Of a stretch of 25,396 nucleotides of DNA, positions 151 to 22,879 are shown piece after piece. The stretch's first letter is position 1. Each line of letters opens with the position of its first letter. Origin of the DNA: Fibrobacterales bacterium (GTDB lineage Bacteria; Fibrobacterota; Fibrobacteria; Fibrobacterales; JAOPTW01); the NCBI GenBank assembly GCA_051532055.1, contig JAOPTX010000072.1:1-25396 (forward strand), given 5' to 3'. Below the pieces are notes generated by a model. That model worked only from the letters and a program-made list of their open reading frames with translations, searched no databases and had not been told where the DNA came from. The position numbers and the translations under genes were made by a program.

Positions 151-229
151 GCCCAACAGCAAAAGCAGGCAACGATTTTTTCTAAAGATGAAGAAGAAAA
201 TCGCTGCCAACATTTTGTGCACGTTGAGC
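151..229 (+). repeat. attC-like hairpin core, copy 1
   Basis: GCCCAAC (RYYYAAC) at 151 and GTTGAGC (GTTRRRY) at 223; stem CAAAA-GCAGGCAACGATTTT / AAAATCGCTGCCAACATTTTG; homologous to 21598-21676 and 22803-22879. Confidence 0.8.
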
Positions 230-326
230 AGGGGCAGACGAAAATAATTTATTGGGTACAGCACACCGTCCGGCGTGGATCAATGTATACACCATCAATA
301 CTATTTGAGTTGCTCTGGCTCATGTC

Positions 327-2465
327 CTAAAACACCTTCATGATCATCACTTCAGTTCTGGTATGGGGGAGAACGGGCACTGCAGTACCTGACAGGGTAA
401 AAAACCTCACCTTCGTACCGAACTGCAATTCAGGGAGAACATCGTAAGGGGAAATGACTTGATAGTGCGCTCTGCTTGTACCCTGATATGGATGATTAAT
501 AGGGGACACTGATTCGGATGAAAAACTATTCTCTTCCTCTTGTTGTGTATCAGATGAGTCTTCAGGTGCCGAGCTTACCGTATCAGTAGATTCTTCGGAC
601 GAATCTGTTGGTAGGGTATCAGATGTATCCACTGGTTGGGTATTTGAAGTATCTGTTACCAGTGTGTCAGAGCTATCTCTATGGAGTGTATCCAAACTAT
701 CCATCGGTATAACTTCAGAAGTAGTACCATAGCATTGAAACTCATGTAAGTTAGCAGCCATACCCGCTTCAGAGTTTTTTACAATAAGTCTAATTTTGTT
801 TGTTGTAACCGTGAATTCCTTTTCAACCCACCCATTGAAATCCGCCTTTTCATAGGGAAATGCATCGTGCCATGCAGTATCTACCCAATATTGTATTCTC
901 CATTCTGAAACCTGAGAATTTTTATTATCCTCGTATATTCGAGCACGCGTTACATCTTTCATTTCATCAAATTCAAATTCAACCCACCCTTCACTGCCAT
1001 CAACTGTTTTTGAATCTTGTGCTCCACCACCAGTTGATCCATCCCATAGATTGGAAAGATCAATCCAGTCATCACTGTCACGCTTATACGTTTTCTCATT
1101 AATGAAATTTGTATCTGCTAATAATGACTTGTTATATACTCTCAGCATACTTGGGTTAGGGTAGGGAGGGTCTCTTGGTTCGTCTTGGTTTCTTCCGAGT
1201 GTTTCCCATCGGAGATAATAGCTCCCACTTGAACGGGATTGTAATTCCATACCAGAGGTTTTTGATTCCACAGTTTGTAGTTGTTCTCTTAATGTTTTCG
1301 GGGGTATTAGGGTTTGATCGGGAATATATACATCTACAAGTTGTAAGGTCTCTTCATCAAGAATCCAACTGCTATTCCCGTGTTTAACATGTTCAAAGCT
1401 TTGAATAATTCGCCCAAGGGTATCTGTACCGAAACCTGAGCCTTTAACATTATGATCTATTGAACCTGTTTTGGAAATATTCCACGTATAACTAGTCCAC
1501 TGAGTTGTTTGATAAATCACCCAACGATCATTTTCCCAGCGTGTATTAAATATTTGACTTATTCCTTTTTTATCATATTTATGATACCTGACAACGGCTC
1601 TATCTTTAGTATCCCAAGTTAATCCCACACCCATATTTATTAGGCCATTTCCGGAAGACACTGGATCGACCACCACCCCTGGAGTGGAAATTTTGATAGG
1701 AAGAGAAACGGGGTCGCCACTCATGGTGACCCACTCAGAAAAATCTTTACTTTTGATAAGTGAAACATCGTGGTTTGTATTAGCATTTGGACTGTCTCGC
1801 CACACCCACACAATGTAATAGTACCCATCACGGCCAAGCTTAGGAGTACCATGGTAGGCGTTCATTTTGCCCTGCCCATCAAAAAGCCCTTTACTCGTTA
1901 ACCGATGCCACGTCTTTGTATGTATATCATATCCATTCCATATAGTGGTACCACTGCCACTACTTCCGGTACGATACTGAAAAATCAACACATTATTTGA
2001 ATTTGTAAAAAACTTAGGATACGTAACTTTATCTTCCAGCGATCCAACCATTCCTGGAGCTTCAAAGCTGGAAATATCATGGGGTTTAGAAGACCGAAAA
2101 TAAACCAACGGATCATCATGCATATTGCCACTTATATGAATATACCCTTCGTCGTCAATTTCCATTTCAATGGAATTATGACTATCCCATCCAACTTTAG
2201 AAGGAAGGGTGTGGTACTCCCACTTTGAGGAACCCAAAAGCCGTTGAGCGATGGTCATTTTACGGTCTGCATTATAATACGCTACATACTGTAATGAATC
2301 GGTGTTTTTCAAATCAAAACGAACGGGATGACCTGCCCAGACTGGTGCAATGTCCAGTGCATAGAGAGAGTGGGGAGTTATTAAAATACATACCCCTAGA
2401 ATAAAGGCTAAACATTTTTTAAGCATAGATCTAGATTGCATAAAATAGTGTGATGTGATAGACAT
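327..2465 (-). CDS. Secreted BNR_4-type beta-propeller protein (possible polysaccharide lyase or hydrolase) with F5/8-type-C/CBM32-like domain, D/S/T-rich linker and CTD-like tail
   Basis: Signal peptide; WDSHNSIEMEIDDEGYIHISGNMH and VTYPKFF...FQYRTGSSGSG motifs typical of BNR_4; WVEFEF...NKIRL...EFQCYG discoidin pattern; AAGGAG RBS upstream. Confidence 0.75.
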   Translation of the reverse strand: MSITSHYFMQSRSMLKKCLAFILGVCILITPHSLYALDIAPVWAGHPVRFDLKNTDSLQYVAYYNADRKMTIAQRLLGSSKWEYHTLPSKVGWDSHNSIEMEIDDEGYIHISGNMHDDPLVYFRSSKPHDISSFEAPGMVGSLEDKVTYPKFFTNSNNVLIFQYRTGSSGSGTTIWNGYDIHTKTWHRLTSKGLFDGQGKMNAYHGTPKLGRDGYYYIVWVWRDSPNANTNHDVSLIKSKDFSEWVTMSGDPVSLPIKISTPGVVVDPVSSGNGLINMGVGLTWDTKDRAVVRYHKYDKKGISQIFNTRWENDRWVIYQTTQWTSYTWNISKTGSIDHNVKGSGFGTDTLGRIIQSFEHVKHGNSSWILDEETLQLVDVYIPDQTLIPPKTLREQLQTVESKTSGMELQSRSSGSYYLRWETLGRNQDEPRDPPYPNPSMLRVYNKSLLADTNFINEKTYKRDSDDWIDLSNLWDGSTGGGAQDSKTVDGSEGWVEFEFDEMKDVTRARIYEDNKNSQVSEWRIQYWVDTAWHDAFPYEKADFNGWVEKEFTVTTNKIRLIVKNSEAGMAANLHEFQCYGTTSEVIPMDSLDTLHRDSSDTLVTDTSNTQPVDTSDTLPTDSSEESTDTVSSAPEDSSDTQQEEENSFSSESVSPINHPYQGTSRAHYQVISPYDVLPELQFGTKVRFFTLSGTAVPVLPHTRTEVMIMKVF

Positions 2466-2503
2466 ACTGTGTGTTCTCCTTTATGTTTAAACAATTACAA
2501 ACT

Positions 2504-5437
2504 CTACTTAAAGTGTACAACAACAACACCACTTGGGATTGAAGCCGGTACAATGATTGGTGATCCATTTATTTCAGAGCTCAACAATTTCTCACCAAAA
2601 AGCGAGTATATGCTATAGTGCTTTGCACCCGGTACAAGAGGAATTGTTTTTTGAAATGCATTGAGGGTTATGAGTTTAGAAATGCCAGCATTGTGATTTT
2701 CTGTAAGCTGTATACTTGCTACTGTGCCAGTTTCGTTACTTGAATAGTGTAGTGTTGATGATTCACTCATTTCACTGCGCGTATTCAATTCTTCAGAAGA
2801 TGGACTGATTGATTCAGACGAAATACCAATTGCCGAGCTACTACTTATACCGATTTCTGAGCCGATGTGTGAACTACTGCTCTCATCAGAAAAAGAGTAG
2901 GGTGCTATAGGCTCATAGTCGTCTGTATAGTCTATCCCACTCACATTAGAAAAATATTGAACACATACATCACGCCACTCTTTGGCGTCTATCATTTGCG
3001 TATTAAATTTTTGTTGAATTTCATCATACCGTTGCTGGTCAATTTCTCCATACACTTGATTGAGCGCACCCATATAAGACGCTACACTAGGATGGTATGA
3101 ATCGTACCGGGCAAAAATATCTTTAATGAGAGTATTACCAGAAGCCATTTTATAACTCCACGGTACATGATGAAACCAAAGCAAATAGTCTTCGGAGACT
3201 TGGCTTACATCATTAAAATTGTTTTTTACTTCTGTGTGATACTGTGATACGTTATTAGAACCGCTTGTTGTTCGGTCGTAACCAATACCGTTCTTATCTG
3301 CCTGGTGATATCCCGAACGTTTCTCAGGGCCTGGCAGGTAATGCTTTCCATCAGTCAAAAAATGTAGGCCGAGGGGCATTGTGTAATTCACATAATTTTG
3401 GTGAGATTCCAATAGTATTGGACGCAAGGCCTCTTTTACTGCCGGTTTGGGGCTAAAGGTCATTGAAATCCATTCATCCAGTATAGTCTGTGAGCTCAGA
3501 GTTGGGTCCCATGCCATCCTCCCAAAGGCGTACCAATTTGATTGTGCCATATGATGACCACACCAATTTGAATCATTTCCAATATTTGCAACCCCAGCAA
3601 TGAGACTGATCTTTGAGTTAAATAAAGAACCATCTATAAGCTTTGCTATGGTAGAACCCTTTCCTTTGGCATAGGTGTCTGACCGTAACACTTCTTCCCA
3701 CAGGGTACCCAAGTAAACCATATGGGTACTCCAACCTAAATACTCTTGAGTGATTTGAAACTCAATCCCTATGTTTGTGTTTGGCATGTTTCCAAAAAGA
3801 GGGGTGAATGGTTCTCTGGGTTGAAAATCAAGGGGACCATTTTTTACTTGTATTACCACGTTATCATCAAACTGTCCATCAATTGGTTTAAAAGACTCAT
3901 AGGCAGCACTCGCCCTATCATAATCGTCACTACTTTGACCTCCATACACAAAGGCTCGCCACATTACAATCCCTCCATGGGGTGCGAGTGCCTTTGCCAA
4001 ACAATTCGCACCATCCGCATGGGTCTTATTATAATCGTGAGGACCAGGCTGACCTTCGGAATCGGCCTTTATTAAAAAGCCACCAAAATCTGGAATGAGG
4101 GCATATATTTCTGTGGCTTTTGATTCCCACCACGCAAGTACTGATGCGTTTGTAGGGTCGGCAGTGGAGAGGCCGCCAATAGTTTTAGGTGCGGAAAATT
4201 GCGCAGTTACATACACTCGGATACCATAAGGCCTAAATACATTCGCAAGGGCCGCCACTTTTTTCAAGTTTGATGCCTTTAATATTTCTGGTTCGGCATT
4301 TACATTGTTTAATACTGTTCCGTTAATCCCGATGGATGCATTGGCTCTCGCATAATCAGTGTATCTTTGATCAACGGTACCGGGCAACTCATCCCATTTC
4401 CAAAGTGATTTTCCGGCGTACCCTCGTTCTATGCTCCCATCTGGATTATCCCAATGATTTAAAAGCCGGTAAGAGTTTTGGGGCTTACTTGATACATCCA
4501 AGGATTCTAACGAAGAGCCCGATTGTATCAGTCTCAAAAAAGCAAATACTCCATAGAGTGCCCCAATATCAGACTTCGAAGCAATCACAATACATTGTTT
4601 ACCCGCTACTAGTGTGGTTCGAATCAGATACCCTTCATTCCCCAAGTCATTTAAATTTGAAGTCAAGCTTAACGACTCAATGAGTTCTGACCCGCTTGGG
4701 CTCCCCACTATAATGGTATTTTCGGTGGTTAAAGAAGCTGTGGAAGTGATAGGTTCTCCAAGGAGGCCACCTATTCCTTTTATCAGCTCAATTTTTGCTG
4801 CATCAAGTATAGGGGAAGAACCCTCAAAAACAATTGCCTTAATGACGTTTTTAGCGGATGTAAGGTAATCCGTGTCCGAAATTTTGGGGTACCGTAACCA
4901 GAGATTGTAACCTGTTTCATCGGAGGGGGGAGTAAATGACTCTTCATTTTCCAAGACGATATAATCCAGTGCCAACCATCCACTACCGCTCTTTTTATTT
5001 TCGCCGATTAATTTAAAAGTGAGGGTATGAACACCGGGTTTTTCGATTTGTATAGTTGCGATAGATAATTCTTCATGTACTGTACTGTTTGAATACAAAT
5101 CAATGGGTACACCAATTTCCTGATCATTTAATAGTAGTTGAAATATTCCCCGAGAGTCCCCTTGTTTTACACCAACACTAAAATCATAAGATCCAGCAAC
5201 AGCAATGTTAAAGCTAAAGGTAAGGCTATCTCCTGTTTCATCCGATTCTACAATCACCCCTAAATCATTACTTCCTTCCGGATAACTAAAGTTTCGAAAA
5301 GAGACCCCATCTGTAACAGACTCAACTGCCAGATTTTCTGCCTCATATTTAAATTCCAGTCCAAGGGAGTTCGTTAAACCGAAAAATAAAATAAAAACAA
5401 TAAGCTTAAGCGCTATACTATTAAACCGTAAATGCAT
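2504..5437 (-). CDS. aguA: GH67 alpha-glucuronidase with N-terminal CBM6/CBM35-like module, Ser-rich linker and T9SS-like CTD
   Basis: GH67 signatures RLLNHWDNPDGSIERGYAG, YARANASIGINGTVLNNVN, GGFLIKADSEGQPGP, KNGPLDFQPREP, EFQITQEYLG; N-terminal YEAE...LDYI CBM pattern. Confidence 0.95.
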   Translation of the reverse strand: MHLRFNSIALKLIVFILFFGLTNSLGLEFKYEAENLAVESVTDGVSFRNFSYPEGSNDLGVIVESDETGDSLTFSFNIAVAGSYDFSVGVKQGDSRGIFQLLLNDQEIGVPIDLYSNSTVHEELSIATIQIEKPGVHTLTFKLIGENKKSGSGWLALDYIVLENEESFTPPSDETGYNLWLRYPKISDTDYLTSAKNVIKAIVFEGSSPILDAAKIELIKGIGGLLGEPITSTASLTTENTIIVGSPSGSELIESLSLTSNLNDLGNEGYLIRTTLVAGKQCIVIASKSDIGALYGVFAFLRLIQSGSSLESLDVSSKPQNSYRLLNHWDNPDGSIERGYAGKSLWKWDELPGTVDQRYTDYARANASIGINGTVLNNVNAEPEILKASNLKKVAALANVFRPYGIRVYVTAQFSAPKTIGGLSTADPTNASVLAWWESKATEIYALIPDFGGFLIKADSEGQPGPHDYNKTHADGANCLAKALAPHGGIVMWRAFVYGGQSSDDYDRASAAYESFKPIDGQFDDNVVIQVKNGPLDFQPREPFTPLFGNMPNTNIGIEFQITQEYLGWSTHMVYLGTLWEEVLRSDTYAKGKGSTIAKLIDGSLFNSKISLIAGVANIGNDSNWCGHHMAQSNWYAFGRMAWDPTLSSQTILDEWISMTFSPKPAVKEALRPILLESHQNYVNYTMPLGLHFLTDGKHYLPGPEKRSGYHQADKNGIGYDRTTSGSNNVSQYHTEVKNNFNDVSQVSEDYLLWFHHVPWSYKMASGNTLIKDIFARYDSYHPSVASYMGALNQVYGEIDQQRYDEIQQKFNTQMIDAKEWRDVCVQYFSNVSGIDYTDDYEPIAPYSFSDESSSSHIGSEIGISSSSAIGISSESISPSSEELNTRSEMSESSTLHYSSNETGTVASIQLTENHNAGISKLITLNAFQKTIPLVPGAKHYSIYSLFGEKLLSSEINGSPIIVPASIPSGVVVVHFK

Positions 5438-5595
5438 TTAACTACCCCCAAGCCACTGCTTTAAAGACTTGCCTGTGTATTCCATATTACCCTCCGATAA
5501 ATATATTTAATGCTCTACTATTATATACCGTGAGGCCAGCTTATGACCTCATTTCGTAATGTACTTCACATGTCTTTGCAAGCGAAGAGATGTAA

Positions 5596-7170
5596 TTACT
5601 CCCCAGGTACAATCATATACTGTGGAGCATTCGTAAACTTGTAAGGAAAGGACGAACCTTTCCATTTTATGATTTTACGTTCGCCAAATAGATCCTTTAT
5701 CTCAACCCTCCCGAGTGAACTCTGAATATCTCGAGTTTCCTGCGGACCTTCTTTCCAGAATACATAGATGGTGTCGGATCCTTTTTTGAATTTGAGAAAA
5801 TATACTCCAGGGGTTCCTGAGTCGATACGTTTACTAAAGGTATACCCATTAAGCACAGTGTTTAATGTTTTGTATGCATGGTACGCTTTCTTGGGGGTGA
5901 GATCATTTTCTACGAGTCCAAAATTGTGTTCTCTGTTTCCTGCGTCAGTACCATCATTCTTCCAGTCATACCAGATGCTGAGATTAACCCCCTTGGAAAT
6001 ATTCGTTAAGAGCTCTCTCACCAAACGTTGTGCCTGATCGAAGTCACTGAGTGGATTACCATCCCAGTTTATGTTTGAATAGCCCCATTCACTCGACACA
6101 ATGGGCCTGCCTTTTCCGCCGGTATATCCATCAATAAGAGCATTGAGTTTATCGTACTCACTCCTTACTGTTTCAGGATCTTGATGGCGATAGGGGTGTA
6201 CAGAGACAGCATCAATATGGTTGAGCATACCCAGTTGAAAAGTCTGTTCGATCCAACCCAAATCGATGTGTGCTGTTGCAGAGCCAAGCAGTATCGCATT
6301 GGGATCAGCCTTTTTAATAGCGGGCACTGCCATATTCATAAGTTTCATATAGGCCTTTGCATCAGAGTCTGGTGCCCAGAAAACGTGGATATTGGGTTCG
6401 TTCCACAACTCCCAGATAATGTTTTTTCCTTTATATCGTTCTACTGCTTTTGAGGCATAATTAGTCCAGGCTACTCTTCCATCATAGGTCCAGACAGAGT
6501 TCCCATATTCTTCATAGTTTTTATTAGAGTAATTAAGAATAAACAATAGCTGGAGTCCACGCTGTTCACATCCTTCAACAAGTGCGTCATATTGCGACCA
6601 ATCAAATTTTCCTTTTTGCCTCTCAACTTTATGCCAAAAGAGATCCATGCGTATAATTTTAATGCCAGCATCAGCAATCTGATCAAGTTGAGGGCTGTTT
6701 GCTCGGAAATGAATATTGACTCCAAACCCATGGGGGATAGTCGGGCCAGGGAGACCCCAATTTGCAAAATCAGGATATGTACTCGACGATTCCGTAGGTT
6801 CGTCTGAACTACTTATGGTAAGGCTATCCTGTGTTCTAATAGAACTGCTTGAGCTATTCTCTTTAGCGTCAGAAGAGGAAACTACGCGAGTACTCGAGGA
6901 CTCGGAAACGATAGAGATTTCGGGAGTATTGAAACTACTGAGGGTACTATTACCCTGCGTGCTACTGCTTGGTGTCACTTCAGGATCAGTTTTTTCAATG
7001 GAAGAACCTGTTTCTAATTCAGAACTCAATTGAGTATCACTACTATCGTTAGCAGAGGAATCTGAAATTTCTTGTTCCAGTACTGAGTCTGTTACTTTGC
7101 TACATGCGCTTGATAACAATAAGATTACAATGATTGAAAACCAAGATAAAACAAAATGACTCTTATTCAT
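5596..7170 (-). CDS. Lipoprotein glycoside hydrolase of clan GH-A (GH39/GH5-like)
   Basis: Lipobox-like SSAC, Ser-rich tether, acid/base motif WELWNEPN, SVHPY, nucleophile motif SEWGY. Confidence 0.85.
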   Translation of the reverse strand: MNKSHFVLSWFSIIVILLLSSACSKVTDSVLEQEISDSSANDSSDTQLSSELETGSSIEKTDPEVTPSSSTQGNSTLSSFNTPEISIVSESSSTRVVSSSDAKENSSSSSIRTQDSLTISSSDEPTESSSTYPDFANWGLPGPTIPHGFGVNIHFRANSPQLDQIADAGIKIIRMDLFWHKVERQKGKFDWSQYDALVEGCEQRGLQLLFILNYSNKNYEEYGNSVWTYDGRVAWTNYASKAVERYKGKNIIWELWNEPNIHVFWAPDSDAKAYMKLMNMAVPAIKKADPNAILLGSATAHIDLGWIEQTFQLGMLNHIDAVSVHPYRHQDPETVRSEYDKLNALIDGYTGGKGRPIVSSEWGYSNINWDGNPLSDFDQAQRLVRELLTNISKGVNLSIWYDWKNDGTDAGNREHNFGLVENDLTPKKAYHAYKTLNTVLNGYTFSKRIDSGTPGVYFLKFKKGSDTIYVFWKEGPQETRDIQSSLGRVEIKDLFGERKIIKWKGSSFPYKFTNAPQYMIVPGE

Positions 7171-7420
7171 GTGTGCCCCCGAGAGTGTATATTTTGTGTG
7201 TTTCCCTAACTTAAGTATATACTACGTATAGGCATGAATGTGTGTGTGCAGGACAATAACACTGTGATAATGCTGACTTTTGTTGACATGCTATTTTAGT
7301 TATTTAAAGCGGAACCTCAAAATTGTCAAAAAGCTATTAATTGGATTCAGTAACAAAAGTTTTACTATACCGGCCTGATATTAAATTATTGATCTAAAAT
7401 AATATAATTGAAACAGTGTC

Positions 7421-7450
7421 TATAATCACCTACTGGGCTCAACAGCAAAA
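7421..7450 (+). repeat. Truncated cassette-end repeat (arm A, R'' and start of core)
   Basis: TATAATCACCTACTGGGCTCAACAGCAAAA, 29/30 identical to 135-164; the rest of the core is absent. Confidence 0.85.
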
Positions 7451-11029: not shown

Positions 11030-11050
11030 CTGTTTCACTAACAAATGGTT

Positions 11051-13104: not shown

Positions 13105-13268
13105 TTACGGGAGTCTTGATAGACCACATCTATCCAGTTTCTCTGAGGAGTGAAATACCTTGGTCGCGGATGGTTTTGTAATCAGTTGCTCGGAACCTCT
13201 CTACATGGGCGAGGACTTTGAGTTCACGGAGTTCTGTTGAGGGCGTCAGCTTAATCCCAGAGGTGAGT
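13105..13268 (-). pseudogene. Decayed partial duplicate of the gene at 14741-15571
   Basis: Near-identical direct repeat of about 14855-15037 (ctgaggagtgaaatac...gcgaggactttgagttcacggagttctgtt...cccagaggtgagt) with small deletions. Confidence 0.85.
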
Positions 13269-13401
13269 GTACGCGGTACTTGGGAAAATGCATCGCTTTG
13301 GCATACGATATTAAGTTTCGTATATGATTCAATACGGTGGGTTTACTCAACACTTAATTACTAATTTGTGGTCCCTGATTAAATTGAATGAGATATTTAG
13401 A

Positions 13402-14619
13402 ATGAAAATGATTTACAGTGTTTGCATGGCGCTATTGATGGCTGCTTGTACCAATAGTGTATCTATTGAAGATATTGGTGAGCCGCTTTTTGATTACTTA
13501 GCAAATGAAGATGATAGCACTTTGGTATCAGACGATTATAGAAGCGCTGTGGTAGTCAAAGATATCACCCTTGAGCCTATACTCCAAGATACTATTAATT
13601 ATATTAGAGAGCTTGAAGAGGGCAGAGTGGCAGAACACGTAGAATTATGTAGAGATCTTTTTACAAAAGAAACAAAAGAGTGCCTCTTTGACATAAACTA
13701 TGAAGTAAGATGGCCTGGTTTCACTTACGGGGGTAATTCGAGCGTACTAACTAATCAAGAAGAGTTTTATGACGAATTAGATCAATTATTTGAATATGAT
13801 ATGCATGTGCCTGGGGTAGAAGTGCTTGACTCTTTATACAACATAAAAATTGCGCATAATGAAGTTGTAAATTTTTTATCGCTCAGTAGATCAAGCGTTT
13901 CGAGAGTCGTTAGTCTATCTATAGACGCAACAAATACTGTTGATTATGATTCGTATACTTCCCAAGCAGATGTAAGGGATGATTTTGGAACTTCGTATGT
14001 CAGTGAAATTATTTTTGGCACTATTGAGTATTTTGTAATCAAACTACAGAATATATCAGATGAACACTATAGTAAAAACGACCTAGATCGTGCTTTAATT
14101 CACATTCTCAATGGTGCAACAGAACTATCTGCCTATGAAAAGAAAGTGGTGTATACCAGTGAAATTTACGTACAATTTGGTAATTCCTCAGCGTATTTAC
14201 CGTGGACTAAAGTTCCAAATCTTAATACCCTGTATGATGTTAAACAATATATGATTGATACTCGGAAAGATATAAGCGTGCCCATATCCTTGAAGTACAG
14301 CCAATATCGACAACCATTTGATCGAGATGATGAAGAATTCGAAATGGAGGTCGAGCCTTATTATATTTATTTTGCAGAGATATATTTCAGAGACTATTAC
14401 AAACTTCTGATGTGGTATAATTCTTTCGAAGATGTATCAGTATTGGAGGATGAGTTTATAGAGGCTAAAAAAGGTCTTCAGGATTTAGTGTTAGAAGTTT
14501 CGGATCCAAAATTTGATCTCAATGAAATGCCTAAACCTTCGGATGAACAGAGATATCAAACAGCGTATCATTATAGACGGAACTATGATTATAATTCCCA
14601 AAAAATAGACAAAGATTAG
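13402..14619 (+). CDS. Acidic lipoprotein, possible MACPF/CDC-like fold
   Basis: ATG at 13402 gives MKMIYSVCMALLMAAC lipobox; FGTSYVSEIIFG resembles the MACPF (Y/F)GT/SH(Y/F)x6GG signature. Confidence 0.6.
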   Translation: MKMIYSVCMALLMAACTNSVSIEDIGEPLFDYLANEDDSTLVSDDYRSAVVVKDITLEPILQDTINYIRELEEGRVAEHVELCRDLFTKETKECLFDINYEVRWPGFTYGGNSSVLTNQEEFYDELDQLFEYDMHVPGVEVLDSLYNIKIAHNEVVNFLSLSRSSVSRVVSLSIDATNTVDYDSYTSQADVRDDFGTSYVSEIIFGTIEYFVIKLQNISDEHYSKNDLDRALIHILNGATELSAYEKKVVYTSEIYVQFGNSSAYLPWTKVPNLNTLYDVKQYMIDTRKDISVPISLKYSQYRQPFDRDDEEFEMEVEPYYIYFAEIYFRDYYKLLMWYNSFEDVSVLEDEFIEAKKGLQDLVLEVSDPKFDLNEMPKPSDEQRYQTAYHYRRNYDYNSQKIDKD

Positions 14620-14740: not shown

Positions 14741-15571
14741 CTACAAAGCCAACCTCTCCTTCCCATCATTATCCTCAACACCCACTGCCTTCAACCGTTT
14801 CTTTTTCAAATACTGTTGCCGAGCATACTGGCTATTAAACTCCTTGCGTACTTCGGGGGAGTCTTGAAAGGCTACATCTATCCAGTTTCTAATCTCCAGT
14901 TCCGTAGTTCTGAGGAGTGAAATACATTGGTCGCGGATGGTTTTGAAATCAGTTGCATGGAACCTCTCTGCATGGGCGAGGACTTTGAGTTCACGGAGTT
15001 CTGTTACGAGGGCGTCAGCTTCATCCCAGAGGTGAGTATCAAAAATGACGGGGGAGTCTTCGAGGGGGAGTGCTCTGCCGAGTAAGGCAAGTTCTGTGAT
15101 ATCTCTCAGCACACCGTCCATAGCTTTTGATTTATTAAAAGAGATGATCCTTTTAATGTGGCGTGGTTCTTTCATGCACACCAGTTTTAAAATTTTAACC
15201 ATCTTAGAACGCAGTTCCTTGGCTTAAGGGGCGCGTTGTGTCCAGATGTCACGGTCGGTGGTTTCGGTGCGTAACTTTTGCTTAAAGAGTATGTCGGCGT
15301 GCTGTGCGGCCCGAGACTGCATGATTGCTTTATGTGCGGTCTCTTTACTAAACCCAAAGGTCTTGAGTGCGTTTAAGTGATTGAGTGCAGTCTTACCCAG
15401 TTCTTCTACTTCAAAGAGATATGTATCGATACGCATAGAGGGAATGTGGAGTGCATTGGTCGGTTGCGCAGTAATCTCGTCGATAATCAGGCCATAACAC
15501 GCTTTAGGTTGGTCGGGAACCTTAGAGCTGGGCCTAGTATAGGGGCTTTTGTTATCGTTCTTGCTACTCAT
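14741..15571 (-). pseudogene. Helical hypothetical protein (about 276 codons) split by one in-frame TAA at 15224-15226
   Basis: ORFs 15224..15571 and 14741..15202 are in the same frame; the 21 bp between them read AKELRSK; GGGAG RBS upstream of 15571. Confidence 0.8.
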
Positions 15572-15593
15572 GGTGTCTCCCTCGGGTTAATTC

Positions 15594-15803
15594 CTATCCA
15601 TATGCAACGGTTTGCTATAGATATTGGGTGTTTTGCAGTCCATATGTATGCTGATGCTATCCATATTGGGCAATTTCTTATCCATAGGTGGTCGAATGCT
15701 ATGGGTATGTGCTGATTTGCTCTACCTATGCAAGAGGATACTCTCTATATGTGGTAATTTCCTATCCATAGGTCACTCGATACTATCCATATTGGGTTGA
15801 TTC
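15594..15803. repeat. Degenerate 21-bp tandem array, 10 units (consensus about CTATCCATATnnnnnnnnTTG)
   Basis: Units start exactly every 21 bp: 15594, 15615, 15636 ... 15783. Confidence 0.85.
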
Positions 15804-16118
15804 AGTATATCCTTTCTTACCAGTATTGAGTAATTAAATATCTGATTTTACTAAAGAATTTTGGTTATTTAATCAGTGTAAGTCATGGCACCTAAGCTAT
15901 ATCCAAGTCATTATTAAGCTATTGCCTGTGATCTATAATTTATTACCAATACTCAAAGGACTCTAATATTGAGTACTGCTGGCTTAAGATTTACATATCA
16001 TGGTTTAATATCAATTAACATTGTTTAGAATTTTTCTGAACTAGGCATTTACATTCTCAGTCCTTATAATCAAGTTATTATCCCTAGGAAAGCTTTTCTC
16101 AGATCTGTGACTCCATAT

Positions 16119-16454
16119 GGTAGTAATTCTGGTCAAGAGTGTTGTAAAGCACTCGCAGACGGTAGGTAATTCGTGGGATATGGGTGGTATTTGCTCAGAT
16201 AGTACTTGTAATTGCCCCAATAGGGGCGGTATTCGGTGAAATATGAGGGTAAATGAGCTCAATAGGATAGGGATTATACCGGAGATCGTATTGCGGAGAC
16301 TGTATCTGGTAGGTAATGACCCGAATAGGGCATGTATTCTATTGAGTATAGGTGTAAATAAGGTCAATATCGTCGTAATTATGCTGAATATCGGAGTAAC
16401 TCACTCAGATTGATACCCAAATGTACTGAATCTAGGGGTGATTGGGAACACGAT
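16119..16454. repeat. Second degenerate 21-bp tandem array, about 16 units; reads as heptads in minus-strand ORF 16041..16367
   Basis: Units such as ggtaggtaattcgtgggatat, gggtggtatttgctcagatag, ggtaggtaatgacccgaatag in exact 21-bp register. Confidence 0.75.
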
Positions 16455-16630
16455 TGTGTGTATTAATGGTTTGAGGGGGAGTGGATGTTGTCTCTTGTGA
16501 ATGATGTTGGTTTTTACGTTGTAATTTGAGGGGGAATTTTTAGGTTTATGGTGTAAATTTACCATCTGTGTGATAAGAGTTATATGGCTTTTGATTACAT
16601 ATTATTTCTGCTCACCAAATAGGATTTGTA

Positions 16631-17047
16631 ATGTCTCCCACTAATAAACTTGGCACACCAAAAGATTTAGATAGTATCACTTTAAATGATGTGCTTGAAA
16701 ACAAGGTTTGGGTTTGGACATGGGAAGTAAACCTTGACGAAGACTATGATGAATCTTGGCAGTTGCCTATAATTGGACTTGATGATATTTCTTCTGAGTT
16801 TAGCGAGCCAGTTATCACACTAAAAGTTAAAGACACTGAGATCTATGCTTCAGGAACTTTTGATTATGATAGCAACACAATATTTGGTATTAGCATTTGG
16901 GAAAATGATAACTGGGTTTTACTTCGGCTAAGTTCTTTAAGCGAGCCTATATCGTTTATATCACTTGTTAAAATTGATGGCAAGGAAAACCTAGAATTTC
17001 AGACATCATCTAAATTAATTGATGATGCGCCATTATTAGAATTTTAG
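16631..17047 (+). CDS. Hypothetical acidic, Trp-rich cytoplasmic protein
   Basis: 138-aa ORF with AGGA RBS; no motif recognised. Confidence 0.7.
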   Translation: MSPTNKLGTPKDLDSITLNDVLENKVWVWTWEVNLDEDYDESWQLPIIGLDDISSEFSEPVITLKVKDTEIYASGTFDYDSNTIFGISIWENDNWVLLRLSSLSEPISFISLVKIDGKENLEFQTSSKLIDDAPLLEF

Positions 17048-17210
17048 ACGGAAACAACCACATGTTTTGGGATGAGTGTTTGAGGGAGATATACTAAAAG
17101 TCAGTAGCACTATGTTCAATCACTATAGTTGAGTGTTTCATACAATTATTTTATGTTTATCCTATCGGTGCAACACCCCTAACTTCGTAGCTCCTAACCC
17201 TTGGCGATAT

Positions 17211-19139
17211 ATGTTTTCAATAAGACCACTGATACTCGTGTGTATCACAGCGATACTCCTAATTCAAAACCTATCTGCAATAGAGCTTGATAGTATTCAA
17301 ACCCTCAATGGAGCTGACGTGCCTCAGGTAGATACTGTTGTTGCAGAGCCTTCTGTTGAGGGTGTATCTCTTATTCCTGTGCGTCATCATACCTATCAGA
17401 GGCTTAACCAAGATGAAAATGACTTACTTACCAATATAGGGGGTTTGAGTGTGTTACCTCATCTGTATTATCTTGATGGGGCAGTGGTTTTTATCTCCTC
17501 CAGTTATTTTGATGTCTATTCCTTACTCATAGATGACCATATTAAACAGGCTGAATATAATGTGCATGGGTATTCCGTTGCCTATGGAGATAATCATGCG
17601 GGATTGATAGATATGACATCGCGAAGAGGAGGCCTCGATAGTAGTAATTCATATTATCAAGGCTCCAAAATTTCTGTAGGGACCTTTAATAAACAAGTAT
17701 CCTATGAGGGGCACCATAGTGGGTTTCGGTGGTTTGGAGGGTATAGAAATATCAATACTGAAAATGAATTCCTAGGCATAGAAGAGTTTGCACTAGAAGG
17801 TTGGAATGATCGATATTCCCAAGTAACCATTCAGGGAGGAGCCTCCTATGATATCACGCCCGATCAGGATATTCGATTTACACTATTTTCACAGAGTCAA
17901 ACAGAACAGATGTATCCTAGTCTCTCAACTGAATCACGAATGTATGCACTAAATTATACTGTACGCTCTATTACTGAGGGTCTCGATTTGAGTGTGCACG
18001 GTTCACAGAGTAGTGCTAAAAATGTTTCAGGTTTTCGAGGGGTAGTAAAGTCCGAAACCAACTTGATTGTATCAACTGTTCGCAATGAATTGAGTGTGCG
18101 AGTCGTACCAAATCACACGATAACAGGAGTGCTTGCACTCAGTAGCATAAGTAATGGGTTCAAACAAGTATTTTCTTCGGGTGCCCAATACACTGATAGT
18201 ACTCGTACAGAAAGTGTTGTTGTAGAAACGGAACATGGAGATTCAGTAGAAGTTTGGCTTGGAAATGCGTCTATTGAAGATCAGTGGAGTGTTGGGAATG
18301 CACGTATTACTCCTGGTGCTCGTATGAGTTATCATTTCGATATGAAAGAGTTTACGTTTGATCCTCGGTTTACGCTAGACTATGCCTTAACAGCATTTCA
18401 GAAAGTGACTATTCATGTAGGAGAATATACTCAATTTATTAATACTTCAGGGCAACCTGGTGATTTTAGCATTGGTCAACCTTGGGTGTTGTTGGCTCAA
18501 CAAACTCCGTATCGTTCCATTAGTCCGAGTAGGAGTAGGCTCTATAGTATACAGTACGCTATAGACGATATACTCTCTGTTTTTTCAGCTACCGCTTCGC
18601 TTTCATATCAGAGCTTTGAAAACCTTTATGGCTTTGGAGATGATGATACTACCAATAGTGCCTATGGTAAAGAAGATGCAGTGATAGAAGACTATATTAC
18701 TTTAATCGAAGGTAATAGTTATGGAGCAAGTCTTACGCTCTCTAAAAGTGAGGGGGCACTGGAAGGGTTCATAGAAGCGGGGTATTATACCGCAATTCAT
18801 ACAGATGCCACGGGAAAAACAAGTCGTCCTTATTCTGCTAATTGGAGTAACACTATCTCTTATGATTCTCGGCTATCTATTGTATGGAAGGGGAGAGCGG
18901 GGCTCTTTTATTCAGATTGGCAGTGGTCTTCTGCGGTGCGGTATCGCTACGTTAATAGAATATACCCACCAAGTACTCGAATATTTTTGAAGTTACTTGA
19001 TCTCAGTAGTGAACATTGGCGTACGTCCCTTTCATTTGTCTTTGCAGATGGGGATATAGTATATGGCGGACGGGATGGATATAATGAATTGCCCGATCGC
19101 TGGTATCCACTTATGTGGGAGTTTGAGTATCAGTTTTAG
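17211..19139 (+). CDS. TonB-dependent-receptor-like outer-membrane beta-barrel
   Basis: Signal peptide from ATG 17211; plug-like YGDNHAGLIDMTSR; ITPGAR...FDPRFTLDY strands; C-terminal EFEYQF. Confidence 0.75.
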   Translation: MFSIRPLILVCITAILLIQNLSAIELDSIQTLNGADVPQVDTVVAEPSVEGVSLIPVRHHTYQRLNQDENDLLTNIGGLSVLPHLYYLDGAVVFISSSYFDVYSLLIDDHIKQAEYNVHGYSVAYGDNHAGLIDMTSRRGGLDSSNSYYQGSKISVGTFNKQVSYEGHHSGFRWFGGYRNINTENEFLGIEEFALEGWNDRYSQVTIQGGASYDITPDQDIRFTLFSQSQTEQMYPSLSTESRMYALNYTVRSITEGLDLSVHGSQSSAKNVSGFRGVVKSETNLIVSTVRNELSVRVVPNHTITGVLALSSISNGFKQVFSSGAQYTDSTRTESVVVETEHGDSVEVWLGNASIEDQWSVGNARITPGARMSYHFDMKEFTFDPRFTLDYALTAFQKVTIHVGEYTQFINTSGQPGDFSIGQPWVLLAQQTPYRSISPSRSRLYSIQYAIDDILSVFSATASLSYQSFENLYGFGDDDTTNSAYGKEDAVIEDYITLIEGNSYGASLTLSKSEGALEGFIEAGYYTAIHTDATGKTSRPYSANWSNTISYDSRLSIVWKGRAGLFYSDWQWSSAVRYRYVNRIYPPSTRIFLKLLDLSSEHWRTSLSFVFADGDIVYGGRDGYNELPDRWYPLMWEFEYQF

Positions 19140-19249
19140 GTGTACTCCTCGTGTCAGATCAAAACGCTCTTTTACATCTTATTTAAAAAGCATGTAACAT
19201 TATCAATAATAGCGACGTCTAATCCTTGGGCACACTAATAAGGAATACT

Positions 19250-19630
19250 ATGACTTTAAAACTATTAATACCAATGGTAGCAGCAGTGTTACTTCTGTCA
19301 TGTTTTATGAATGATGATGACTCACCCAATAATGATTCTGTTGGCATAAGCAGTTCAGCTACCAAGTTACAGATTCGTCTAGTACCATAAGATACAATCA
19401 AAGGGGCACTAATACTACCCGGTATGTCTTCAGATAATTCAGGTTCTTCATACTAAAACGATCAATTGTCTGTAACTACAGACTTATAACAGTGAGCATC
19501 TCTATATCATTTAAAGAAAGAGAAACAGGTACAATTACTTTATGGTCGAGCTTCATTTTAAATTTTGCCAATGGAAAAACCTGTTATTCTATTACAAGAT
19601 ACATATTTGTAGAGTGTGCTAACTTACTGA
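19250..19630 (+). pseudogene. Frameshifted lipoprotein remnant (MTLKLLIPMVAAVLLLSC...); 3' limit approximate
   Basis: TAAGGA RBS, ATG at 19250 and LLSC lipobox, stop at 19388-19390; protein-like sequence continues in other frames with stops. Confidence 0.6.
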
Positions 19631-19789
19631 TGGGAATGGGGTAGACTGGGGTAGTTTAAGACGGCTTTGCTACGCATTATTTTCTGAGGATAGTAAAAAA
19701 AGGAATAGGGTAAGGGCACTCTAATTCTATTTTGCGTCTTATGAACGGTTCTGCATAATACTCATTATACTGTATTATACCTTCTTTAC

Positions 19790-19846
19790 TGCCAACTTCT
19801 CGGTGTATCGTGGGGAAGTTGGCATTGCGTACTTACATAGTTGGGC
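19790..19846 (+). repeat. Right part of an attC-like core (left arm lost)
   Basis: Hairpin TGCCAACTTC/GAAGTTGGCA followed by TTGCGTACTTACATA-GTTGGGC, matching the TGCGTAC...GTT right arm of the other cores. Confidence 0.65.
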
Positions 19847-21604
19847 CCAATAGGTGATAGGAAATATTGTTTTAGGTTTGAACTCCTTGTGCTTACTATG
19901 CGGATGCAACAACAGGGCTTTAATTATTACTATATTTTAATAAATGAGGATTTTACGAGGTTATTATGAAAGTCTATTTACTTGCTTTTTGTTTTTGCTA
20001 TTTGGGTTGTGTTTTTGATAAAACAGAAATTGCTGAAATTTCTAACAGTTCGTCCGCTACTATAGTTGATAGTTTCTCTTCAAAAGTTATAGTGTCATCA
20101 CAAACATCGGTTGTTAGCTCTTCTGATATAGTCATTCAAGTTCAGTCTTCCCATAATGCTATAGGTGTTAGCTCAGAAATTCAAAGACATGTAAGTTCTT
20201 CACATAAAAGATCCAGAGTTCAAACGTCCGCTTCATCAACTTCGGACAATAGTCAAAGTTACACATCGAATGATTTTAATAAACAAATCAATAAGCATTT
20301 TCCATATGTTATACGTAATATGTCATCGCGTTATTGTGAGCCGTATACATTTAAAATTGCAGAGGATTCATTAATACAGATTATTGGGGGAAAGTTCCAA
20401 AGAGGGTTAGATAGATTAAGTGATAGTTTATATCGATTCTATTCAATTGAATTTCCTGAACACTATTTCGATGCAGTAATTCACGATAGTACCATAAACT
20501 ATATCAATTATTTTGAGGAGAGTTTAATAATGGATTTTAGCAGGAGTTATCCAGGGTGTGAAAACGAATCATATAAATTAAGGCTAGGTATGATTGATGA
20601 TTCGCTAAGTTATCCCCAATCAACTACTGAAGACCCTCTTAAGAACAAAAATAGTTACATAATGCTAGAGCCATGGGGGCAAAGTATACGGTGTAGTGGT
20701 ATAGAGGAACGGGTTAATAAAATGCCTTCCGGCAAGTCTAGAATTCAAATGGTTAATGATTCAACAATACTCATTGTTGATAGTGAAAACTATGCCGATA
20801 GTATACAACGTGTAATCATTAACAATACTTATGAGTATATGGATTATTATTCTGGTTTCATGAAAATTCGCTTTAAATATATTCCAGAAGCAGGCTGTGA
20901 GCCTGCTGAATTTGAATCAATAATTGCAGTAGGCTCAAAGCTTGGAGAAGGTGAGCGTCCTTACGATATTTCAGCATATTTTGAACCCACAGCACAACTC
21001 ACCATCGATAGCTGTAGTGAAATAGCTATAGATTCTTTAGAAGATGGTTGTAATGTTTGCACTTGTTCTAAAATAGGAATTAAGGTTTGTACCAATTTTG
21101 ATTGTGCCACAGAAAATGTCGTTTGCACAACAATAGGAAACCCTCAATGTGGTTATGATGATTCAAATGAATTTTATAAAGTACGGAAAATATTGGTGGA
21201 TAGGTTTGATGGGAATTATGAATTCGATTTTGATGAAGGCGACTTTAGCGGGGGATATAAGAGTATTGGTGTTAATAGTGTGACATCATCAAACCGAATA
21301 GAAAAGTTATCAACCGGTGATTTTATCGCCTTGAAAAACTTAATTATGCATTCTGATGTTACCTTAGAGTGGGAATATGGGTGTGATCCACACAAATCAA
21401 GATGTTACGACCAACACATATCTAAAGTTAGTCTTGTCTATAACCATGATACAATTCAAGGGTATTATCCAGATGGTACAATTAAAGGCTTATTGTTTTC
21501 AGAAGAGTTAACAGGCTTTTTGGATGAATTAATAAATTTCGAAATGAATTACTGATTATGCTAAAGTGTTCGGGGAGTTTCGATAATCACCTACTAGGCC
21601 CAAC
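19840..21604 (+). mobile_element. Cassette A, bounded by 19-bp inverted arms
   Basis: GTTGGGCCCAATAGGTGAT (19840-19858) is complementary to ATCACCTACTAGGCCCAAC (21586-21604) at 17/19. Confidence 0.75.
19966..21555 (+). CDS. Ser-rich lipoprotein with a pacifastin/VWC-like Cys motif
   Basis: YLGC lipobox, GAGG RBS; C-x9-CNVCTC-x7-CT-x3-C (DGCNVCTC). Confidence 0.75.
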   Translation: MKVYLLAFCFCYLGCVFDKTEIAEISNSSSATIVDSFSSKVIVSSQTSVVSSSDIVIQVQSSHNAIGVSSEIQRHVSSSHKRSRVQTSASSTSDNSQSYTSNDFNKQINKHFPYVIRNMSSRYCEPYTFKIAEDSLIQIIGGKFQRGLDRLSDSLYRFYSIEFPEHYFDAVIHDSTINYINYFEESLIMDFSRSYPGCENESYKLRLGMIDDSLSYPQSTTEDPLKNKNSYIMLEPWGQSIRCSGIEERVNKMPSGKSRIQMVNDSTILIVDSENYADSIQRVIINNTYEYMDYYSGFMKIRFKYIPEAGCEPAEFESIIAVGSKLGEGERPYDISAYFEPTAQLTIDSCSEIAIDSLEDGCNVCTCSKIGIKVCTNFDCATENVVCTTIGNPQCGYDDSNEFYKVRKILVDRFDGNYEFDFDEGDFSGGYKSIGVNSVTSSNRIEKLSTGDFIALKNLIMHSDVTLEWEYGCDPHKSRCYDQHISKVSLVYNHDTIQGYYPDGTIKGLLFSEELTGFLDELINFEMNY

Positions 21605-21676
21605 AGCCGAAGCACGCAAGCTTTTTTCTATGCACTGAAGTGCTAAAAGCCTGCGTACGTTCGCCAAGCGTTGCTG
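21598..21676 (+). repeat. attC-like hairpin core, copy 2
   Basis: GCCCAAC...GTTGCTG, 79 bp; stem CGAA-GCACGCAAGCTTTT / AAAAGCCTGCGTACGTTCG with compensatory changes relative to copies 1 and 3. Confidence 0.8.
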
Positions 21677-21895
21677 GACATAGGAATGGGCAGGGATATT
21701 TGATGGGGGAGACTTAATGAGTTATGCAAGGACGAAAATATTTTTATTTGGTTCGACTGCCCGTCCATGGGCAGGCTATTTTTTTATATTCTGTGTAAAT
21801 ACAAGTTATTTGCTTAATATTTCAGTTCGATATGATTCTGAGAACATTTCAAACATAAAATTCGTCTAATATCAGACACTACATTTTAGGACAAT

Positions 21896-22270
21896 ATGAA
21901 ATATTTATTCATTATTATTTGTTTGACATTCTTTATGGCTTGTGCAACCTCAATATCTACAGAACAAATTGAGATGAAGGAATTTTCATTTCCATCTGAG
22001 AATTATGATCTAACAGTATCAAAGAGAGAGTTATTTAATATTAAAATAAGGCTATGCAGCGGGTGTTTAAATGACTGGACACTAGTTGCATATGATTCTT
22101 CTAAAGTTGAACATCTCAATACAACAAATCAGGATTTTAGCTGTCAGAATTGCGATGGTGGCTCATATAATAAAACATTTAGTTTTACTGCAAAAGATAG
22201 CGGATTTACGGAAATTCGTTTTGTTGAACTAAACTTAGACACATTGTTAATTAATTTATCAGTAGAATAA
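21896..22270 (+). CDS. Lipoprotein with a chagasin/I42 protease-inhibitor-like domain
   Basis: FMAC lipobox; LTVSKRELFNIKI...W...GG...FSFTAKDSG.TEIRF matches the chagasin-family pattern. Confidence 0.65.
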   Translation: MKYLFIIICLTFFMACATSISTEQIEMKEFSFPSENYDLTVSKRELFNIKIRLCSGCLNDWTLVAYDSSKVEHLNTTNQDFSCQNCDGGSYNKTFSFTAKDSGFTEIRFVELNLDTLLINLSVE

Positions 22271-22312
22271 AAACCCACTCACCAAATGAGCAATTAGGGA
22301 CATGGTTTATGT

Positions 22313-22387
22313 TTATAACAGTCGTTGGAACGGAAACCGTTAAATGTTATATTCTGTATGAAAGTTCCGCTCAACTAAAAGTTATAA
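22313..22387 (+). repeat. Canonical-geometry integron attC site
   Basis: R'' TTATAAC, 5 bp, L'' TTGGAACG ... L' CGCTCAA, 6 bp, R' GTTATAA; followed directly by the RBS and ATG of the next gene. Confidence 0.85.
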
Positions 22388-22400
22388 TTAAGGGAAAGAG

Positions 22401-22682
22401 ATGAATAAAATTATTATTGCATATTTTTTCGTGTTAATTGGTTGCTCTTCTACTGGGGTTGTATCTATGGGACAAGGGAGTTATCTAGTCTCTAAGAAAA
22501 GTCCCCAAGTAGGTTTTGGTCCGTCTGTAACATTAAAGGCGGATGTTTATAAAGAAGCCAATGAGTTCTGTATGAAGCAAAATAAGGAAGTTGAAACAGT
22601 AAACTTTGAAAGTACTGATTCAGGATTTGCTCAATCTCCAACGGCATCTTTAGAATTTCGGTGCTCTGAAAAAAATGATTAA
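22401..22682 (+). CDS. Small lipoprotein of unknown function
   Basis: LIGC lipobox; two further Cys; AAGGG RBS; starts 13 bp after the attC R' box. Confidence 0.85.
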   Translation: MNKIIIAYFFVLIGCSSTGVVSMGQGSYLVSKKSPQVGFGPSVTLKADVYKEANEFCMKQNKEVETVNFESTDSGFAQSPTASLEFRCSEKND

Positions 22683-22802
22683 TGTTTCTAGAAAGACTTA
22701 GTTAAAAGACTCTATCCGCCGTCCATGGCTACGTTCATTAAAACAAAAATATTTTCTTTTCTCCCAAATAAGCATCATGCTAGGTATGCCCATTACTACA
22801 TC

Positions 22803-22879
22803 CACCAACAAGAAAAGCACGCAACGATTTTTTCTAGTATGAAGAAGAAAATCGCTGCGTACATTTTCAAACGTTGTAG
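22803..22879 (+). repeat. attC-like hairpin core, copy 3
   Basis: CACCAAC...GTTGTAG, 77 bp; stem GAAAA-GCACGCAACGATTTT / AAAATCGCTGCGTACATTTTC; close to copy 1. Confidence 0.8.

Follow-up and report, generated by a model that had tools for sequence, protein, structure and literature searches.

A Hairpin Family in a Fibrobacterales Genome: Candidate Recombination Sites of a Second Integron-Like Gene-Capture Platform

Introduction

Which recombinase acts on a set of hairpins that resemble integron cassette sites, but do not have the geometry of such sites? This question was raised by a 25.4 kb contig (C72, JAOPTX010000072.1) from the genome of a Fibrobacterales bacterium (assembly GCA_051532055.1; 5.17 Mb in 181 contigs, 39.6% G+C), the whole of which was analyzed and is referred to here as the window. 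An initial annotation, made from the letters of the window alone, had described three hairpins, starting at positions 151, 21598, and 22803, whose arms appeared to covary and whose spacers and extra bases did not match those of an attC site, and had proposed that a recombinase different from the classical integron integrase (IntI) may act on them. The IntI-specific insertion reads the extrahelical bases of attC, and the insertion and those bases have been treated as the defining adaptation for handling folded single-stranded cassettes. Recombinases without the insertion are therefore discarded by annotation tools.

Our analyses of these hairpins, which we called family B, indicate that they probably serve a second integron-like platform for gene capture, alongside a classical integron in the same genome, as its cassette recombination sites (the functional counterpart of attC), although a fair measure of doubt attaches to this reading. 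We infer that the acting enzyme would be a XerA-like recombinase encoded next to a family B array on another contig of the genome, C46.

Family B Hairpins

A profile made from five copies of the ~75-nt hairpin and searched over the contigs of the genome (cut-off E < 1e-3) revealed 29 family B copies on 13 contigs, with all copies on any one contig having the same orientation. Most of these contigs are short, as is to be expected where a repeat-rich array interrupts the assembly. On the gene strand, the left half of the site follows the plan xxxCAAC, 2 nt, 5-bp stem, GCA, 4-bp stem, A, 7-bp stem, and loop, and the right half continues with the 7-bp stem, C, the 4-bp stem, TAC(A) or AAC, the 5-bp stem, 4–5 nt, and GTTGxxx. 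A covariance model built from 24 full copies matched 38 sites in this genome and in the only congener that was searched. The model was strongly strand-specific at each site (e.g., 97.6 versus 18.6 bits), and it had matches in two of the 61 genomes of the order. Based on this rarity across the order and the one-strand scores, family B is not a chance pattern. There were no Rfam matches in the window, and no such family is present in that database.

The covariation noted in the three original copies, all of which are on the plus strand, was readily seen, with pairing kept by CAAAA/TTTTG, CGAA/TTCG, and GAAAA/TTTT, by GGCA/TGCC versus CGCA/TGCG, and by CGATTTT/AAAATCG versus GCTTTTT/AAAAAGC. It also held in the larger alignment of the 38 model matches, where 17 of the 23 pairs had changed on both sides (125 cells), although that alignment was fitted to the model and so favors it somewhat. 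In total, 83.2% of cells were paired compared to 68.6% after shuffling, and the covariation score of 0.334 was equalled in none of 500 shuffles, while structures slid by 1–3 columns scored at most 0.068. The covarying arms show that the intrastrand hairpin is under selection.

The unusual geometry of the hairpins was likewise found throughout the family. The 5′ spacer, after CAAC, was 2 nt in all 38 copies, and the 3′ spacer, before GTTG, was 5 nt in 31 copies, 4 nt in four, 6 nt in two, and 3 nt in one. The internal loop has 3 nt opposite 3–4 nt (6 nt in one copy), and the unpaired bases on the right arm exceeded those on the left by 2–6 in every copy. An attC site, as described by Nivina et al. 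(2016, PMC5027507), has five to six unpaired spacer bases on each arm, and its extrahelical bases (positions 16, 20, and 23/24) are on the R″-L″ arm of the bottom strand. Family B sites do not have a 5–6-nt spacer on each arm, and their extra bases are on the opposite arm in all 38 copies; that is, their geometry mirrors that of a canonical attC in both the spacers and the arm with the extra bases.

In other respects family B sites are attC-like. They have the two inversely oriented core sites, RYYYAAC (R″) and GTTRRRY (R′), with AAC and GTT at the ends of an imperfect palindrome, and the C-G, A-T, A-T, and C-G pairs of CAAC/GTTG were kept in 32, 37, 34, and 35 of the 38 copies, respectively. 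The outer three core positions paired in just 15 of 37, as would be expected if the flanks derive from different cassettes. As in attC, the bottom strand (complementary to the genes) folded better, in 23 of 24 copies and by a mean of −4.2 kcal/mol. This is because A·C oppositions on the top strand become G·T pairs on the bottom strand.

Cassettes Bounded by Family B Sites

Family B sites form co-oriented clusters in which each cassette has its site at the 3′ end, after genes on the same strand, as is typical of attC. The cargo of the B array on contig C3 includes a ParE/Phd toxin-antitoxin pair. Cassette flanks were of recurring types, which we called X, Y, Z, W, and V, and the left and right types at a single site combine freely, while the sequence that is common to the sites begins at CAAC and ends at GTTG. 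Exchange is therefore placed at these tetranucleotides. Subtypes of the core were found to combine freely with both left and right flank types, so that either tetranucleotide may be the one exchanged.

A cassette starts, immediately after GTTG, with the inverted complement of the sequence that closes it, immediately before CAAC. Ungapped complementarity of at least 18 nt between start and end was present in 7 of the 18 cassettes between consecutive sites, versus 6 of 306 mismatched pairings and 0 of 21 comparisons across a single site. With gaps, the ends of X-type cassettes were complementary over up to ~85 nt. An A at +11 recurs opposite a C at −11 of the cassette ends, giving C·A on the top strand and G·T on the bottom strand. 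In contigs from the probable source sample, branch points lie immediately ahead of CAAC (21600/21601) and immediately past GTTG (21673), and cassette ends are connected by low-depth joints. Neither the branch points nor the joints are independent evidence, and they have no bearing on excision.

The Recombinase on Contig C46

One family B array begins at a recombinase gene. On contig C46, a 364-aa recombinase is encoded on the minus strand. An attI-like region adjoins its gene, and beyond this region come a cassette with two genes, a B site (49.8 bits), another cassette, and a further B site. In the congener, an orthologue with 56% identity and syntenic left-hand genes precedes a cassette that differs from that of C46 and is of X type, and then a B site (97.6 bits). 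The orthologue, as is the case for the B model, was found in two of the 61 genomes of the order. The recombinase-proximal DNA of C46 and the congener was too divergent in alignment for an attI crossover to be placed. The window has its own copy of the attI-like element, which aligns with C46 15499–15659, beside the recombinase gene, and is 79.8% identical over 114 nt to the end of contig C3; it has no adjoining recombinase gene in the window. That end of C3 (261844–261972) is a third attI-like copy, which runs into a B-site right arm (TTGCGTAC-GTTCGCCAAAC) and is then cut by an IS110-family element. The fusion points to an exchange of attI-like sites with B sites at their common TGCGTAC motif.

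IntI proteins are distinguished by an insertion of ~35 residues near patch III (intI_Cterm, I2 helix). The C46 protein does not have this insertion: its alignment had a gap of ~40 residues relative to the IntI encoded on contig C108 and to an IntI-like protein encoded on contig C44. It scored 183.6 bits against TIGR02249 (186.2 for the congener; cut-off 265), with the match in two stretches and model positions 181–237 missing, and it passed the XerA model NF040815 with 230.2 bits (235.8 for the congener; cut-off 220). The catalytic residues R225, K250, H314, R317, H340, and Y349 were identified in the alignment, and the nearest solved structures are XerA proteins (4a8e and 5hxy). Additional Xer paralogues are encoded on C35 and C44. 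The initial annotation had advised looking for a co-occurring tyrosine recombinase, and the XerA-like gene that adjoins the B array on C46 is a candidate. Its proposal of a recombinase other than IntI has the support of context, as B arrays start beside a XerA-like, insertion-less recombinase in both congeners, which may be the acting enzyme.

Phylogenetic analyses placed the C46 recombinase outside the IntI clade (clade support 100 in a quick tree and 100/99 in a careful tree) and outside the clade of the Xer paralogues of its own genome (98 and 100/100, respectively). Its closest homologues, in candidate-phyla bacteria (38–43% identity), are beside repeats that have no likeness to the cassette hairpins. 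Eleven other Fibrobacterota loci encode homologues with 34–38% identity, and nearby direct repeats were present at seven of them; the repeat units at the three of these seven loci that were inspected had no obvious AAC/GTT hairpins. At loci L145, L146, L149, L152, and L153 from other Fibrobacterota, direct repeats of 60–270 nt without the AAC/GTT plan were observed within a few kb of the homologue. Two members of the recombinase clade (loci L081 and L116) had no array within ~8 kb. A generic scan of ~60 loci for AAC...GTT hairpins was dropped as it was too noisy in DNA of high G+C content.

The Classical Integron of the Same Genome

The IntI on C108 scored 371.7 bits on TIGR02249 and was the sole protein above the cut-off in this genome. 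Its gene is followed by cassettes ending in a different, ~125-nt site, family A, with the form xxATAAC-AAAAC-GTTGGAGACGG...CCGCTCAAC-TCAACC-GTTATxx. Of the 18 family A copies, 12 were parsed, and 11 of these had 5/6-nt spacers. In all 12, the left box was 11 nt and the right box 9 nt, so that the left arm is the longer by two bases. Family A is canonical in its geometry. The 18 family A and 29 family B copies have one contig in common, where they are 92 kb apart, and the bona fide IntI in both this genome and the congener is followed by canonical attC sites only. The site at 22313 in the window, which the initial annotation had called a canonical attC with 5/6-nt spacers and an extra base in L″, is a short member of family A. 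Its extra base is indeed on the left arm, while its spacers are 4–5 and 5–6 nt depending on the parse. The B covariance model gave this site only 11.9 bits.

A second, divergent IntI-like gene was observed on C44 (10298–11176; locus L002, 1189–2394). It encodes 401 aa, scores 193.6 bits (below the cut-off), and has the IntI-type insertion. The gene, which the congener also has, adjoins an EF-P-like gene and otherwise stands by itself, with no array of cassettes in the vicinity. The recombinases on C108 (locus L001, 1480–2844), C46, and C44, as well as those of the Pirellulaceae described below, have N-terminal extensions of ~95–200 residues past the usual core-binding domain, and the Pirellulaceae proteins also bear a C-terminal extension of ~130 residues.

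A Parallel in the Pirellulaceae

The Pirellulaceae provide an independent parallel. Recombinases with 31–35% identity to the C46 protein and no insertion were found in this family, and a conserved ~140-nt repeat forms arrays immediately next to them. The consensus of 36 copies from six species is yAAC-AT-GGTTTTTACGC...G(T)CGTAAAAACC-TTCC-GTTr, which has 2-nt versus 4-nt spacers and a bulged T on the right arm, the geometry of family B. At locus L095, the gaps between repeats are taken up by open reading frames (ORFs) that share the strand of the sites, a reading that is only moderately safe in such high-GC DNA. Start/end matches of at least 11 nt were present in 27 of 32 Pirellulaceae cassettes versus 161 of 992 mismatched pairings. 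A true IntI is encoded elsewhere in all five Pirellulaceae genomes that were checked. In Novipirellula, IntI is followed by canonical sites (GGATAAC-CATCG-...-CGTACC-GTTATCC) with none of the ~140-nt repeats there. These insertion-less recombinases are likewise outside the IntI clade and the ordinary Xer paralogues, and the quick tree joined them with those of the Fibrobacterales (SH-aLRT 88).

We conducted a census of 121 genomes of the family, counting the insertion-less recombinase at E ≤ 1e-60; as the genomes are kin and many are fragmented, the counts overstate their independence. The ~140-nt repeat was present in 16 genomes. The insertion-less recombinase was found in 8 of these 16 versus 2 of the 105 repeat-negative genomes, and an IntI match in 11 of 16 versus 51 of 105. 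The repeat therefore co-occurs with the insertion-less recombinase and not with IntI. In six of the eight genomes that have both, repeat and recombinase are adjacent. Two repeat-positive genomes, both fragmented assemblies, have the recombinase and no IntI match, and three have neither enzyme. A Planctomycetes attC model was built by Ghaly et al. (2021), which may or may not include the ~140-nt repeat.

A Possible Mechanism

The attI-like duplex beside the C46 gene has the arrangement TTGCGTAC-7 nt-GTTG, followed by the cassette (of which about 8 nt are counted into the site). When the bottom strand of a B site is folded, its 3′ arm reads TGCGTGC-7 nt-GTTG, which is the same spacing, while the 5′ arm that bears CAAC reads CAAC-11 nt-GTACGCA and thus has four extra bases. 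Because the 3′ arm repeats the spacing of the attI-like site, the B hairpin may mimic a duplex Xer-type core site with an R arm of 11–12 bp, in the manner of the CTX-phage hairpin for XerCD. We propose that the strand would be selected by the asymmetry, which in attC is found on the other arm, together with the A·C mismatches (G·T on the bottom strand), and that the four extra bases and the G·T/A·C positions would block the second strand exchange.

The parallel in the Pirellulaceae allows a broader proposal, which we advance only tentatively and with somewhat less conviction than the reading of family B itself. A distinct class of integron-like platforms might exist beside classical integrons, in at least the Fibrobacterales and the Pirellulaceae, with Xer-type recombinases in which the I2 domain of IntI was either never gained or was lost, hairpins with 2-nt and 4–5-nt spacers, extra bases on the cleaved arm, and a cassette-specific R arm of 11–12 bp.

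Alternative Explanations

The alternative that survives best is that family B is an odd, host-specific variant of attC that is recombined in trans by a classical IntI, either that of C108 or the IntI-like protein of C44, in which case the XerA-like neighbor is a bystander that became fixed beside one array in the ancestor of the genus. We consider this unlikely, yet much of what weighs against the reading of B as part of a second platform speaks for it. IntI recognizes its sites by structure, not sequence (Cury et al., 2016, PMC4889954), and B sites keep the AAC/GTT triplets, the imperfect hairpin, and the better-folding bottom strand of attC as described by Nivina et al. (2016). All genomes that show adjacency of array and insertion-less recombinase have a true IntI as well, and this enzyme could act in trans; the C44 gene provides a second insertion-bearing candidate in this genome. 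Most B arrays have no adjoining recombinase, those on C3, on C47, and in the window being far from any. The canonical family A site inside a B cassette of the window indicates that the two systems are not fully separate.

Further points count against the second platform. The adjacency in the Fibrobacterales, which was seen in two genomes, represents one evolutionary event, and the Pirellulaceae are also kin. Half of the repeat-positive Pirellulaceae genomes (8 of 16) had no orthologue at the census threshold, and the Planctomycete repeat showed no bias in bottom-strand stability, with that strand more stable in 14 of 36 copies. In the careful tree, the recombinases of the Fibrobacterales and of the Planctomycetes were not resolved into a single clade, so that the two groups may share descent or may have converged. 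In addition, recombinases without intI_Cterm near attC sites were judged not to be IntI by Cury et al. (2016).

However, action of IntI in trans has to contend with three observations. The first is the geometry of B, whose 2-nt spacer contrasts with the usual 5–6 nt and whose extra bases are opposite to the arm that IntI reads. The second is that only canonical sites follow IntI in the two Fibrobacterales genomes. The third is that the look-alike sites of the Pirellulaceae track the insertion-less recombinase rather than IntI.

Far less probable is that the housekeeping Xer machinery moves the arrays, as it does pdif modules and CTX-type phages, with the C46 gene just another Xer paralogue. 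The XerA-model score of the C46 protein and the XerA proteins that are its nearest solved relatives fit this explanation. So does a hairpin which, like that of the CTX phage (Escudero et al., 2016, PMC4792948), imitates a duplex core site and has no extrahelical bases of the IntI type. Yet ordinary Xer paralogues (27–50% identity to the C46 protein, and at most 40% except for one 88-aa fragment, across the 61 genomes) are present in all but one genome of the order, whereas the sites and the C46 orthologue are found only in the two congeners. The C46 protein also differs in having an additional N-terminal part of ~95 aa and in being encoded at the start of the array in divergent orientation, and both trees exclude it from the Xer-paralogue clade of its own genome.

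Least credible of all, and very improbable, is that the hairpins are REP/MITE-like selfish repeats or terminators and the cassettes chance intervals: the 20–85-nt inverted repeats at cassette ends are MITE-like and some copies are solitary or truncated (7422, C47), but there are no target-site duplications, the core is constant between units with breakpoints exactly at CAAC and GTTG, the sites are co-oriented with genes, one array begins at a recombinase gene in two genomes, and neither genome encodes a Y1/HUH transposase (PF01797). The HUH clade that the initial annotation had named as another candidate is accordingly not supported, as PF01797 had no match in either this genome or the congener and was positive in 6 of 14 genomes as a control; REP elements with a RAYT (HUH Y1) transposase were set aside on the same result.

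If the distinct class of platforms proposed above is real, gene capture through folded single strands does not need the innovation found in IntI. Part of the clusters that are filed as attC without an integrase would then have an enzyme of their own, and the annotation of such clusters would change. An array with its own geometry beside an insertion-less recombinase makes testable whether the insertion is needed, how a strand is chosen and exchange limited to one strand without it, and what the ancestral state between Xer and IntI was.

Other Features of the Window

The features of the window are listed in Table 1. The X-type cassette carries two small lipoprotein-like ORFs (21896–22270 and 22401–22682) in addition to its internal family A attC, and the cargo of the last cassette is a gene on the minus strand (22976–25087) for a 703-aa STAND/AAA NTPase-like protein. 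The long-loop B site that ends this cassette has no GTTG, as an insertion sequence directly follows GGAAC.

Table 1. Cassette-related features identified in the 25.4 kb window.
Feature	Position	Strand	Details
Y-type cassette-end flank	136–157	+	ATAATCACCTACTGG + GCCCAAC; inverted partner of Y-type cassette start
Family B site, copy 1	151–229	+	R″ GCCCAAC, R′ GTTGAGC; 78.6 bits (B covariance model)
Truncated B site	7422–7450	+	Y-type end flank, then just the initial ~8 nt of the B core
attI-like element copy	19719–19843	+	Hairpin TGCCAACTTC/GAAGTTGGCA, then TTGCGTAC, 7 nt, GTTG
Y-type cassette	19840–21604	+	Start GTTGGGCCCAATAGGTGATAGG; 529-aa ORF (19966–21555); end ATAATCACCTACTAGGCCCAAC
Family B site, copy 2	21598–21676	+	87.4 bits (B covariance model)
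X-type cassette	21670–22809	+	Imperfect terminal inverted repeats, ~85 nt
Short canonical attC, family A type	22313–22387	+	TTATAAC ... GTTGGAACGG ... CCGCTCAAC ... GTTATAA
Family B site, copy 3	22803–22879	+	74.2 bits (B covariance model)
Cassette	22873–25247	+	23-nt terminal inverted repeats (22873–22895/25225–25247), 91% complementary
Family B site, long-loop variant (fourth copy)	25241–25378	+	93% identity to C47 copy; C47 copy 43.1 bits
IS110-family element end	25379–25396	+	Inserted between ..AAC and GTTG of the long-loop B site

Three other regions of the window were also noted. Between the first B site and the truncated B site, a minus-strand block of ~7 kb (327–7170) contains three glycoside-hydrolase-type genes, with matches to BNR_4, GH67 alpha-glucuronidase, and GH39/42-like families. 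This block would be either an exceptionally large cassette in reverse orientation or an insertion into the array. At 15585–15797, in an intergenic region between small ORFs without a family match, a 42-nt unit is present in five tandem copies (62–73% identity to the first), which look like iterons or an array of binding sites. Lastly, direct repeats of ~160 nt that are 91–97% identical (13109–13268 and 14857–15037) surround a 431-aa ORF (13324–14619) without a Pfam match, and may with it represent a small mobile or duplicated unit.

Comparison with Known Systems

IS1111-attC-type insertion sequences belong to the IS110 family, and an IS110-family element was also found at one fixed position in the cassette sites of this genome. 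Its junction between ..AAC and GTTG recurs at five cassette sites (the end of the window, C122, C141, the end of C46, and C153; 5/5 junctions), and the ends of the element interrupt the assembly at these five sites. The element encodes a 434-aa transposase that scored 119.8 bits on NF033542, below the cut-off of 140, and the likeness is at the level of the IS110 family. This comparison concerns a parasite of B sites, not the sites themselves.

One known system close to the family B arrays is the sedentary chromosomal integron as described by Nivina et al. (2016) and Cury et al. (2016), for example with the VCRs of Vibrio. Both have co-oriented arrays of short cassettes, including toxin-antitoxin genes, with sites that are homogeneous within the lineage, and in both the cassettes end in an imperfect ..AAC/GTT.. 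hairpin, with exchange at the triplets and a bottom strand that folds better. A B array also starts beside a divergently oriented tyrosine recombinase gene and an attI-like site. In contrast to the integrons described there, B spacers are 2 nt on the R″-L″ side and 4–5 nt on the other, rather than 5–6 nt on each, and the extra bases are on the R′-L′ arm instead of R″-L″. The recombinase beside the B array is without the IntI insertion and below the TIGR02249 cut-off, and the ends of B cassettes are complementary over 12 to about 85 nt instead of 7 nt.

With regard to mechanism, there is a likeness to the integration of CTX phage by XerCD at dif1, as presented by Escudero et al. (2016). In both cases the enzyme would be of Xer type, with no I2-like domain, and its substrate would be a folded single strand that stands in for a duplex core and has no extrahelical bases of the IntI type. 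However, B sites are found on many arrayed cassettes with a dedicated recombinase gene, whereas CTX is one phage genome and relies on the dimer-resolution enzymes of its host.

Our literature searches on integron-like, attC-like, Xer, Planctomycetes, and Rhodopirellula topics found no paper that ties insertion-less recombinases to cassette sites of their own, and none was found that combines integron, Fibrobacter, attC, and integron integrase. Recombinases of this kind have been encountered before. Cury et al. (2016) reported 50 such proteins, close to attC sites but with no intI_Cterm, 29 of which came from genomes that encode IntI at another location, and Smyshlyaev et al. (2021, PMC8138268) described an "integron-like" subgroup in which the insertion is "not fully conserved". 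As in those accounts, the insertion-less recombinase that we observed adjoins cassette sites, and IntI is encoded in the same genome. The cases of Cury et al. were set aside as not IntI; unlike them, the recombinases reported here neighbor a site family with its own geometry, apart from the sites linked to IntI, and do so in two phyla. The insertion-less recombinase next to these arrays gives a hint that a second kind of gene-capture system has been overlooked.

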